In this document: one piece after another, positions 22,415 through 25,535 of the stretch | How the letters are laid out: each line of letters opens with the position of its first letter | Position numbering within the stretch: the stretch's first letter is position 1 | Translations under genes and position numbers: made by a program | Source: Escherichia coli | Lineage (GTDB): Bacteria > Pseudomonadota > Gammaproteobacteria > Enterobacterales > Enterobacteriaceae | Length of the DNA stretch: 64,000 bases | Assembly: GCF_003334355.1 (NCBI RefSeq) | Contig: NZ_QOWP01000001.1 | Strand: one strand, 5' to 3' | Notes under the pieces: generated by a model | Databases searched by the model: none | What the model saw: the letters and a program-made list of their open reading frames with translations, nothing else | Told to the model about the DNA's origin: nothing

Positions 22415-24022
22415 TCAATGTGCCTTGATATACAACTCTTTGCTGTAGACATAATCCTGGGGATTATGCAGCGGAAAACCGCCAACGTAGGGTTTAAGCA
22501 GTTTGATTAACGGCTGATAGTAGATAGGAATCAGCGGTGCCTGTTGGTTGATGATCACTTCTGCCTGCTGATACAACGCATTACGCTTTGTCGCATCAGT
22601 GATCTGCGTGGCCTGGTTTAGTAAGGCGTCATACTGCGCATTTTTCCAGTGACCGACGTTTTCTTCACTATCGCTTTTGAGCGTGTTCAGGAAGCTGGAA
22701 GCATCATTGTACGTCGCATCCCACGACTGCCGAGACAGCATGAAATCACCGGCTCGTCGGGCATCAAGATAGGTTTTCCACTCCATTGTGCGCAGCGTCA
22801 CCTGTGCACCCAGCCATTTTTTCCATTCGGAAGACAACGCTATCGCGGTCTTTTCATGCAGATCGTACTTGTTGTAGAACAGCTCAAAGCGTAGCGGATG
22901 AGAGGCGTCGTATCCCGCCTGTTTCAGCAAGGCTTTTGCCATCGCGACGCGCTCACTCATTGGCTTTTGCAGTTCATCGAACGTCGTCGCGCTAAAGCCT
23001 TTTACCTCTGGCGGCGTCAGCGTGGTTGCGGGCGTTCTCAACCCCAGTACCTTTTGCGCAATAAGCTGTCGATCAACCGTAAGATATAGCGCCCGACGCA
23101 CTCGCACATCGTTAAATGGCGGTTTCTCAAGGTTGAAGTTGTAATATTCGCTGTTCAGACGCGGAATAATTCGTAGCTCGCCAGGCAGTGATTTTTCAAT
23201 GGCGGGAATTTGCTGCGCCGGAACCCAGGTGAGATCGACCTCTCCCGCGCGATAGCGGTTATAGCCGGTGACCGAATTATCTAGCGCCAGATACTCAACC
23301 TGTTGCAATACTGTATGTTGCGCATCGCGGTACTTTGGATTTTTGCGTGCAGTAATCTTTTCGTTAACTACCCACTGATCAAGCACAAAGGCACCGTTGT
23401 AAACCATGTTCTCTGGCTTACTCCAGCTATCGCCATGTTTAGCGATGACATGATGAGGAACCGGGAACAGCGTCGGCCAGGCGAGCATCGTCGTGAACCA
23501 AGGAACCGGCTGCTCAAGCGTAACTTCAAGAGTACGATCATCCGTCGCTTTGACACCCAGCGATGTAACATCTGCTTTACCCGCAACAATAGCTGCGGCA
23601 TTGTTAATGTGCGCCTGTGCCAGATAGCCAGCAAAAGGGCTTGCCGTTTTCGGGTCAACCGCGCGCTGCCAGCCGAGGACAAAATCCTCTGCCGTCAGAG
23701 GCTGACCGTCGGACCACTGCAAACCGCTACGCAGATGGAAAATATAGCGCTTGCCGCCGTCCAGTATCTCCCAGCGTTCAGCCTGAGCGGGCTGCACCTG
23801 GCCTTCACCGTCCATCCATACCAGACCTTCAAACAGATCCAGCACAATCTGCGCGGCAGTATTCTCCTCCACCTTTTGCGGGTCGAGCGTACCTGGGTCG
23901 CTATGATTGTTGTAACGAAAGACTTGTTGCGGGGCGAGCGGTGTGTTGGCGGGAACGTCAGCAGCGTAGAGAGGAGCCGCACTTACCAGGCTGACCAGCC
24001 ATAATAAATTTCGCGTATACAT
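22415..24022 (-). CDS. ygiS: Periplasmic solute-binding protein YgiS (peptide/oligopeptide ABC-type, family 5)
   Basis: ORF trimmed to the ATG giving 535 aa (MYTRNLLWLVSLVSAAPLYAADVP..., signal peptide). Confidence 0.9.
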   Translation of the reverse strand: MYTRNLLWLVSLVSAAPLYAADVPANTPLAPQQVFRYNNHSDPGTLDPQKVEENTAAQIVLDLFEGLVWMDGEGQVQPAQAERWEILDGGKRYIFHLRSGLQWSDGQPLTAEDFVLGWQRAVDPKTASPFAGYLAQAHINNAAAIVAGKADVTSLGVKATDDRTLEVTLEQPVPWFTTMLAWPTLFPVPHHVIAKHGDSWSKPENMVYNGAFVLDQWVVNEKITARKNPKYRDAQHTVLQQVEYLALDNSVTGYNRYRAGEVDLTWVPAQQIPAIEKSLPGELRIIPRLNSEYYNFNLEKPPFNDVRVRRALYLTVDRQLIAQKVLGLRTPATTLTPPEVKGFSATTFDELQKPMSERVAMAKALLKQAGYDASHPLRFELFYNKYDLHEKTAIALSSEWKKWLGAQVTLRTMEWKTYLDARRAGDFMLSRQSWDATYNDASSFLNTLKSDSEENVGHWKNAQYDALLNQATQITDATKRNALYQQAEVIINQQAPLIPIYYQPLIKLLKPYVGGFPLHNPQDYVYSKELYIKAH

Positions 24023-24154
24023 GGTATTCCTTACCGGAGAAATTATAAGCCCAACAACAATACGCCTGTGGCATTGTTCGCTCAAACTTATCGCGAGTGA
24101 TTTGGCTCACACTCCGGTAAAGAAAAAAGCGAGTTGCCCCCGCTTTTCCATTAA

Positions 24155-24550
24155 TTAACGGATTTCATTCAATAGTTCTGGATGCTTATCCAGAACACGT
24201 AAAAGTTTGATTGTGGAAGGATGAGGTTGGGCATTGCCTTTTTCGTAACGCGAAAACGCATTTACACCTCCCCCAAAAATTTCGCTTGCCTCTTTTTGGG
24301 TAAGAGAGAGCTTTTTTCGAACCTTCACTATAAATTCAGGTGCCACTGTTTCGGCATTCACCGAAGCCCGAAATGCCTTTACTTGCGCCATGAAAGCATC
24401 TGACTCTTCTTTATTCATGATGCTCTCTTCGCAATGGACACAATATAAACCGTGGATACCTTTCAATACTGTTTTTCGTCCACGGAAGGTGTATGGAATA
24501 TCTTTAATGCCAGAAACCATTTCTCCCTGGTGGCAAACCGGACATTTCAT
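24155..24550 (-). CDS. mqsA: Antitoxin MqsA (zinc-ribbon plus HTH-XRE)
   Basis: 131-aa ORF MKCPVCHQGEMVSGIKDIPYTFRGRKTVLKGIHGLYCVHCEES... (CxxC...CxxC zinc ribbon); 1-nt gap after mqsR. Confidence 0.95.
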   Translation of the reverse strand: MKCPVCHQGEMVSGIKDIPYTFRGRKTVLKGIHGLYCVHCEESIMNKEESDAFMAQVKAFRASVNAETVAPEFIVKVRKKLSLTQKEASEIFGGGVNAFSRYEKGNAQPHPSTIKLLRVLDKHPELLNEIR

Positions 24551-24551
24551 A

Positions 24552-24848
24552 TTACTTCTCCTTAAACGAGACGATCAGTACGTCATGAATTACCGTAATT
24601 TTAAGATAAACCTGGCCTGTAACAAGCCTGGGTCTGTAAACATCCTGCCAGATAGTATGATCAGAGTAGGTGGTCATGCTTTTATAAAAGTCGCTCTCTG
24701 ATAATCCAATGATAACATTACACATACCATCAAAATCCAAACCTAACTCATCTGCATTTAACAGGGCACTACGTGTTGTACGAACTTGCCCGGCATTGAC
24801 AAGTTTTTTAACCTGACTCAAACGTGTATATGGTGTGCGTTTTTCCAT
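24552..24848 (-). CDS. mqsR: mRNA interferase toxin MqsR (RelE-like)
   Basis: 98-aa ORF MEKRTPYTRLSQVKKLVNAGQVRTTRSALLNADELGLDFDGM...; toxin gene precedes antitoxin, the reversed order typical of mqsRA. Confidence 0.95.
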   Translation of the reverse strand: MEKRTPYTRLSQVKKLVNAGQVRTTRSALLNADELGLDFDGMCNVIIGLSESDFYKSMTTYSDHTIWQDVYRPRLVTGQVYLKITVIHDVLIVSFKEK

Positions 24849-24878
24849 AACCCCCGCCTCCCTGTTACTTTAGTTATA

Positions 24879-24921
24879 ACCTAAAAGGTTAATTACAGCA
24901 ATGAAAAAGCACCTAAAAGGT
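24879..24921. promoter_or_regulatory. Two MqsA operator palindromes in the mqsRA promoter
   Basis: ACCTAAAAGGT occurs twice (24879..24889 and 24911..24921), fitting the MqsA operator form ACCT-N3-AGGT, about 31 and 63 bp upstream of the mqsR start. Confidence 0.75.
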
Positions 24922-25052
24922 TAGTTAGATGTACGGAGATAGTGACCACACAAAACGTATTCTTTAAGGAAAGTGATTGACCATATAAGAAAGTGGCGCA
25001 TTAGTAGCGCCAGTTTGAAGCAGGAATTTATAAGGGAAGCTGGAGTCAGGCA

Positions 25053-25535
25053 TCACGCCAACGGCACATAAACATCCGTTTCCAGTCGCTGCTCTGTCAC
25101 CCCTTCGGCAAGATTGGTGTAGTGAAACAGAATCGGTGCTTTACGCATTTTCTCGCCGCTTGCAGGCAGCCAGTGGCGAATGATGCCCCATACCGTGTGT
25201 GAAATATCGTCCAGCTCGCCAACGTGGCGGGCCACGGCATAACGTCCACCGGTAAGTTCACCATTGCTCACACCATAACGATTATCGGGAATCGGTTCGC
25301 TAACGCTGCCGCAGATATCAAAGCGAAACGCTTCCGGTGCGGTGGTGGCAGGGTCGTCCCAGGCGACGCCAAAAGTCTGGCTTTGGTTAACAGGAGAAAG
25401 CCCCGTCTCTTTACGCCACATGATAAATTTCGCCACGCTGTAGTTGAGCAATTCAGGGCTACAGCGGTGCGGCAACATCGCCACAGGTATTGATGGGAAA
25501 TCGATAATGTTTACATCCAGTGTCAGGTTTGTCAT
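25053..25535 (-). CDS. ygiV: GyrI-like effector-binding domain protein YgiV
   Basis: 160-aa ORF MTNLTLDVNIIDFPSIPVAMLPHRCSPELLNY...; matches remembered YgiV. Confidence 0.85.
   Translation of the reverse strand: MTNLTLDVNIIDFPSIPVAMLPHRCSPELLNYSVAKFIMWRKETGLSPVNQSQTFGVAWDDPATTAPEAFRFDICGSVSEPIPDNRYGVSNGELTGGRYAVARHVGELDDISHTVWGIIRHWLPASGEKMRKAPILFHYTNLAEGVTEQRLETDVYVPLA

Follow-up and report, generated by a model that had tools for sequence, protein, structure and literature searches.

The question raised by this locus is whether two short, nearly contiguous genes, preceded by a repeated palindrome, constitute a toxin-antitoxin module that is controlled through the palindromes, and if so, whether these sites serve the module alone, belong to a broader regulon, or are repeats that arose by chance in AT-rich DNA. 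The genes are located in a 64-kb stretch of Escherichia coli DNA that was analyzed in its entirety (hereafter, the window). We conclude, with a probability of about 0.97, that the locus is the chromosomal mqsR-mqsA type II toxin-antitoxin operon of E. coli; nothing in the results contradicts this identification, and the locus, along with its two MqsA operator palindromes, is an already known, textbook example. The initial annotation had proposed such a module at positions 24155-24925 and had left the strand unstated; the module is indeed there, with both genes on the minus strand and one promoter region 5' of mqsR.

The gene for the toxin MqsR (24552..24848, minus strand, 98 aa in the list of open reading frames) precedes the gene for the antitoxin and autorepressor MqsA (24155..24550, minus strand, 131 aa), and the two are joined by the sequence TAA-T-ATG, that is, with a 1-nt gap at 24551, exactly the sizes and spacing first read from the sequence. 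The Shine-Dalgarno sequence GGGAGG, also read from the sequence, lies 8 nt before the mqsR ATG (24857..24862, minus strand). The next gene upstream of the operon is ygiV (25053-25535, minus strand); downstream of mqsA, past a terminator-like hairpin, lies ygiS, which encodes an ABC substrate-binding protein (1293 bits to NF007287). RefSeq names the same DNA of K-12 MG1655 mqsA and mqsR, between ygiS and ygiV. No RNA family was detected by Rfam in the region 23900-25200.

Comparison of both predicted proteins with protein families and structures, the check that the initial annotation had called for, yields the same assignment. MqsR matches the Pfam family PF15723 over residues 5-97 (4.2e-34) and is identical to chain B of PDB 3HI2 in 97 of the 98 residues; there was no NCBIfam model match for MqsR, so that in this case Pfam and PDB were used instead. 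MqsA is 100% identical to the proteins in PDB 2KZ8, 3GN5 and 3O9X, and matches Pfam PF15731 (8e-56) and TIGR03830 (146.7 bits, with the cutoff of 61.8). The suggested N-terminal zinc ribbon (CPVC...CVHC) and C-terminal HTH of MqsA were both recovered, as a match to TIGR03831 (YgiT_finger; 43.7 bits, cutoff 20.2) over residues 3-47 and to Pfam HTH_3 over residues 76-117, respectively. The zinc ligands are Cys3 and Cys6 in CPVC, and Cys37 and Cys40 in CVHC; in an alignment of 18 MqsA sequences sharing 53-92% identity, these four cysteines are invariant, as are N97 and R101, the two DNA-contact residues of MqsA as cited in PMC5422877. The residues of MqsR implicated in toxicity and catalysis, namely, K56, Q68, Y81 and K96 (PMC2791442, PMC9636575), are all present, and each is conserved in 59-60 of 60 MqsR sequences.

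To examine the family at large, 80 loci were fetched with the MqsA profile from a collection containing one genome per species. In 75 of these, the gene directly preceding mqsA encodes an MqsR homolog, and in 61 of 67 loci (the window included) in which the MqsR match starts at residue 1, the gap between the two genes is 1-5 nt. The toxin-first order, which had been noted as reversed relative to most type II pairs, is described as unconventional in the literature (PMC6918082, PMC4803016).

The promoter region contains two palindromes. In plus-strand coordinates, ACCTAAAAGGT occurs at 24879-24889 and again at 24911-24921; in the orientation of the genes, it reads ACCTTTTAGGT. The proximal copy is the core of a perfect 15-bp palindrome, TAACCTTTTAGGTTA (24877..24891), which corresponds to palindrome 1 of p-mqsRA (PMC4894380), whereas the distal copy (24911..24921) is the 11-bp palindrome ACCTTTTAGGT. 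The sites are 32 bp apart from start to start, as originally described, with 21 bp between the cores. The published MqsA operator is 5'-AACCT-N3-AGGTT, present in two copies in p-mqsRA (PMC4894380, PMC5422877), and the published starts, which lie 34 bp from each other if the 15-bp form is used (PMC4894380), agree with the window.

That these palindromes are merely chance repeats of an AT-rich region, devoid of operator function, is a reading to which we assign a negligible probability. The only observation in its favor is the low GC content of the region: 0.41 over 24100-25050 (0.39-0.43 across the locus) compared to 0.507 for the whole window, which bears out the initial description of an AT-rich stretch beside ygiV. 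Exact ACCT-N3-AGGT sites, however, number two in the 64-kb window, with 0.44 expected, and both are in p-mqsRA; the 13-mer shared by the two sites, ACCTAAAAGGTTA, is expected only 0.02 times per window, and two copies were found in 0 of 100 shuffles. Moreover, both palindromes have counterparts in orthologous promoters. All five Enterobacterales relatives (Brenneria, Rouxiella, Serratia, Yersinia artesiana and Sodalis; MqsA identity of 59-70%) carry an exact pair of ACCT-N3-AGGT palindromes, spaced by 30-34 bp and at positions that match those in the window. A palindrome with no more than one mismatch occurs at least once in 52 of 60 loci with full-length MqsR (the window included). Across the orthologs, the central N3 varies freely, whereas the position relative to the -35 and -10 hexamers is conserved, and among all upstream palindromes of the 4-N3-4 form, ACCT is by far the commonest half-site, with 28 occurrences versus 4 for the next one. 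Given this conservation in the promoters of relatives, the palindromes are conserved operators rather than chance repeats, and the binding of MqsA to such sites has been published (PMC4894380, PMC5422877); MqsA has also been crystallized in complex with DNA (PDB 3O9X). Together, conservation and the published binding data already refute the chance-repeat reading.

With regard to base composition elsewhere in the window, the segment 28250-28850, just after qseC and around the position of ygiZ in K-12, is very AT-rich (GC content of 0.30-0.31).

The operators can be placed with respect to a putative promoter, pRA. Every ortholog has a TAnnnT hexamer whose first two bases are the TA of AGGTTA, which points to TATAAC (24873..24878, minus strand) as the -10 hexamer in the window; the probable -35 hexamer is TTGCTG (24896..24901, minus strand), at the place where relatives have a conserved TTGCCA. 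A scan for consensus promoters did not call these pRA hexamers. With the hexamers so assigned, the 17-nt spacer holds the proximal operator, which shares 2 nt with the -10 hexamer, and the distal operator is located upstream of the -35 hexamer. The scan did detect a sigma-70-like site, TTGTTA-16-TAAAAT, inside mqsR (24598..24625, minus strand). Fraikin et al. 2019 report (PMC6918082) two constitutive promoters within the mqsR ORF that drive mqsA only, and the detected site is possibly one of these, pA1. As for pA2, TTGGAT-17-TGTTAT is a weaker candidate, also inside mqsR, at about 24741-24713 on the minus strand. Directly after the mqsA stop codon, there is a hairpin of the form GGAAAAGCGGG-GGCAA-CUCGCUUUUUU (24123..24149, minus strand; fold of -17.5 kcal/mol, z = -2.0), a likely intrinsic terminator, and the scan found another hairpin resembling a terminator in the interval that separates ygiV from the mqsRA promoter (24994..25012, minus strand).

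Combined with the documented mechanism of mqsRA (PMC2791442, PMC9636575, PMC6918082, PMC5422877, PMC4803016), this arrangement suggests the following mode of operation. Transcription of the operon runs along the minus strand, starting from one promoter under autoregulation. The toxin MqsR is expected to act as an RNase of the RelE fold, cutting mRNA at GCU (and GCA) independently of the ribosome, as reported for the characterized enzyme, which is ribosome-independent and cleaves GCA less efficiently than GCU (PMC4803016), with K56 and Y81 as the catalytic residues (PMC9636575). MqsA would bind MqsR via the N-terminal zinc domain and block RNA binding sterically, in line with the steric obstruction of substrate binding described for this antitoxin (PMC9636575); growth arrest by MqsR and its neutralization by MqsA are experimental findings for the K-12 proteins (PMC2791442). 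On the proximal operator, between the -35 and -10 hexamers and overlapping the latter, MqsA would occlude RNA polymerase. Excess MqsR would free MqsA from DNA and would have no co-repressor role; destabilization of the MqsA-DNA complex by MqsR, in place of co-repression, is cited in PMC6918082 and PMC5422877. Finally, the constitutive promoters inside mqsR would supply surplus antitoxin, offsetting the toxin-first gene order.

Whether MqsA also acts beyond its own operon is a matter of published dispute: roles in stress response, biofilm formation and global regulation have been claimed (PMC4894380), but found no confirmation in the work of Fraikin et al. (PMC6918082). Under the global-regulator interpretation, further ACCT-N3-AGGT sites, at rpoS, csgD and cspD, are real targets, and the operon serves to regulate stress responses and biofilm formation instead of being a self-contained module. 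EMSA and expression data for csgD, rpoS and cspD are on record in favor of this interpretation (PMC4894380; summarized in PMC4803016). Nevertheless, we consider it unlikely. The window contains no further exact site, relaxation of the spacer to N2-4 yields no additional ACCT/AGGT site within the 64 kb, and palindromes with one mismatch occur in the window at the level of chance (18 versus 13.0 +/- 3.7 expected); pleiotropic regulation and a stress or biofilm role were the very effects that could not be confirmed in 2019. Furthermore, the operon is missing from 58% of the complete E. coli genomes, which fits an accessory module that is poorly integrated in core regulation.

This presence-absence pattern can be traced to a discrete low-GC segment. 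Alignment with Nissle 1917 and O104:H4 delimits 927 bp (24124..25050) that encompass the whole operon, namely, the upstream hairpin at 24994-25012, the promoter, both genes and the terminator, such that the hairpin following mqsA marks the left edge of the indel; strains without mqsRA (Nissle 1917, O104:H4 and rows of the O157:H7 type) carry the five bases TTCCC instead. The segment is present in 2295 of the 5426 complete E. coli genomes (42%), in which it is always chromosomal and at least 99% identical. No direct repeats flanking the 927-bp segment were seen. Several rearrangements in this neighborhood were observed in individual strains: in strains of the O104:H4 type, nearly the whole of ygiS is missing as well, strain H9Ecoli has an IS1-associated deletion that extends from just beyond ygiS to mdaB, and in the O121 strain 201805972, IS1A is inserted inside the 961-bp locus.

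The closest known system is MqsR/MqsA of E. coli K-12 (b3022/b3021, YgiU/YgiT), which resides at the same chromosomal site, ygiS-mqsA-mqsR-ygiV, and has MqsA, the promoter, both palindromes, the 1-nt gap and the terminator identical to those in the window. The 961-bp locus differs from that of K-12 MG1655 at one base, MqsR having His7 in MG1655 and Tyr7 in the window. The source is a natural strain and not K-12, because the surrounding 35 kb are only 99.3% identical to MG1655 (blastn; window 7030-44364); the closest complete genome is that of PSS-12. The mismatches to MG1655 are clustered in a mosaic pattern, with identity of about 96% beyond 42.4 kb, and the IS2 found near ygiL in MG1655 is lacking at that point in the window.

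A homologous MqsR and MqsA are also part of MqsRAC of E. coli C496_10, a tripartite system reported to defend against phage T2 (PMC9519451, PMC10783111). MqsRAC, however, needs the SecB-like chaperone MqsC, whereas mqsA in the window is followed by the terminator hairpin and then by ygiS; no mqsC-type gene for a SecB-like chaperone is present downstream of mqsA at the locus, and the last residue of MqsA is number 131, just as in K-12. We considered YgiS as a possible third component in place of MqsC and rejected this assignment: MqsC is a SecB-type chaperone of another strain, and ygiS is found also in strains without mqsRA. The mqsRA locus is not filed as a known defense system in the PADLOC library, given that PADLOC gave no MqsR model match and only weak HTH matches (RmrA) for MqsA.

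The HigB/HigA pair resembles mqsRA in the toxin-first order, the RelE-fold RNase toxin and the Xre-type HTH antitoxin, but HigA is devoid of the N-terminal zinc domain, HigB is ribosome-dependent and the operator sequence is different. The C-terminal domain of MqsA shows a weak match to HigA-2 (PDB 5JAA, E = 4.6e-4).

The one base that distinguishes the locus from that of MG1655 is at position 24830, A on the plus strand (G in K-12), and changes codon 7 of the minus-strand gene mqsR from CAT (His) to TAT (Tyr). The variant base was found in none (0/2296) of the complete E. coli genomes carrying mqsR. The exact H7Y protein is nevertheless encoded on at least 19 public contigs from separate samples, in the same genomic context and always with intact mqsA. 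An artefact, or a change confined to the window, was therefore rejected: the recurrence of the exact protein beside intact mqsA identifies H7Y as a rare natural allele. Because the change affects a conserved RNA-contacting residue, the activity of this MqsR may differ from that of the K-12 toxin. It could be a natural hypomorph, with weaker cleavage and a module that is partly disarmed in this lineage, although we regard this possibility as rather doubtful. His7 is conserved in 57 of the 60 MqsR sequences (95%). Its chemical shift changes upon addition of any of the RNA substrates tested, and its replacement with alanine leaves only moderate cleavage in vitro (PMC9636575); the absence of the allele from the complete genomes with mqsR points in the same direction. 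Conversely, H7A is as toxic as the wild type upon overexpression (PMC2791442), tyrosine occurs naturally at position 7 in one distant homolog (L076), a tyrosine could still stack on RNA, and the allele recurs in independent samples, each time next to intact mqsA. The His7-to-Tyr change is the only unusual detail of an otherwise ordinary mqsRA locus.

The layout of the operator region varies within the family. In Pseudomonas putida KT2440 (PP_4205/PP_4204), MqsR/MqsA shares with the E. coli system the toxin-first order, the ACCT-N3-AGGT operator, repression by MqsA and the lack of a co-repressor role for MqsR (PMC5422877), but has a single palindrome directly before the start codon; the E. coli type differs from it by the second, distal palindrome and by a leader with a Shine-Dalgarno sequence. 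The arrangement in P. putida is the prevalent one: of the 60 family loci, 46, none of them from Enterobacterales, have a single ACC[T/A]-N3-AGGT palindrome with its start at -23 +/- 2 relative to the start codon, and in 40 of these 46, TAnnnT follows directly, with about 6 nt then remaining to the start codon. Since the palindrome and TAnnnT leave only these ~6 nt, the mqsR mRNA is predicted to be leaderless, probably, in most of the distant family members. In distant loci, we also observed an upstream half-site, TAACC[A/T]AC, that abuts a TTGCCA -35 hexamer. The leader with the Shine-Dalgarno sequence and the second, distal operator appear to be specific to Enterobacterales.

The mqsRA system is among the best-characterized toxin-antitoxin systems, with solved structures for MqsR, MqsA and the MqsA-DNA complex, and the present analysis shows that such a module and its operators are recognizable from raw sequence alone. 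The boundaries of the 927-bp indel and its 42% presence, the rare H7Y allele and the probable leaderless, single-operator layout of most family members could be of use to specialists in toxin-antitoxin systems; these side results are new but minor, and none opens a new question. Taken jointly, two interpretations are advanced here tentatively, as possible but on balance improbable: that MqsR with H7Y is naturally attenuated or shifted in specificity, and that the ancestral layout of the family consisted of a single operator and a leaderless mqsR. If this is true, the Enterobacterales-specific leader and distal operator would be additions that tighten the control of the toxin.
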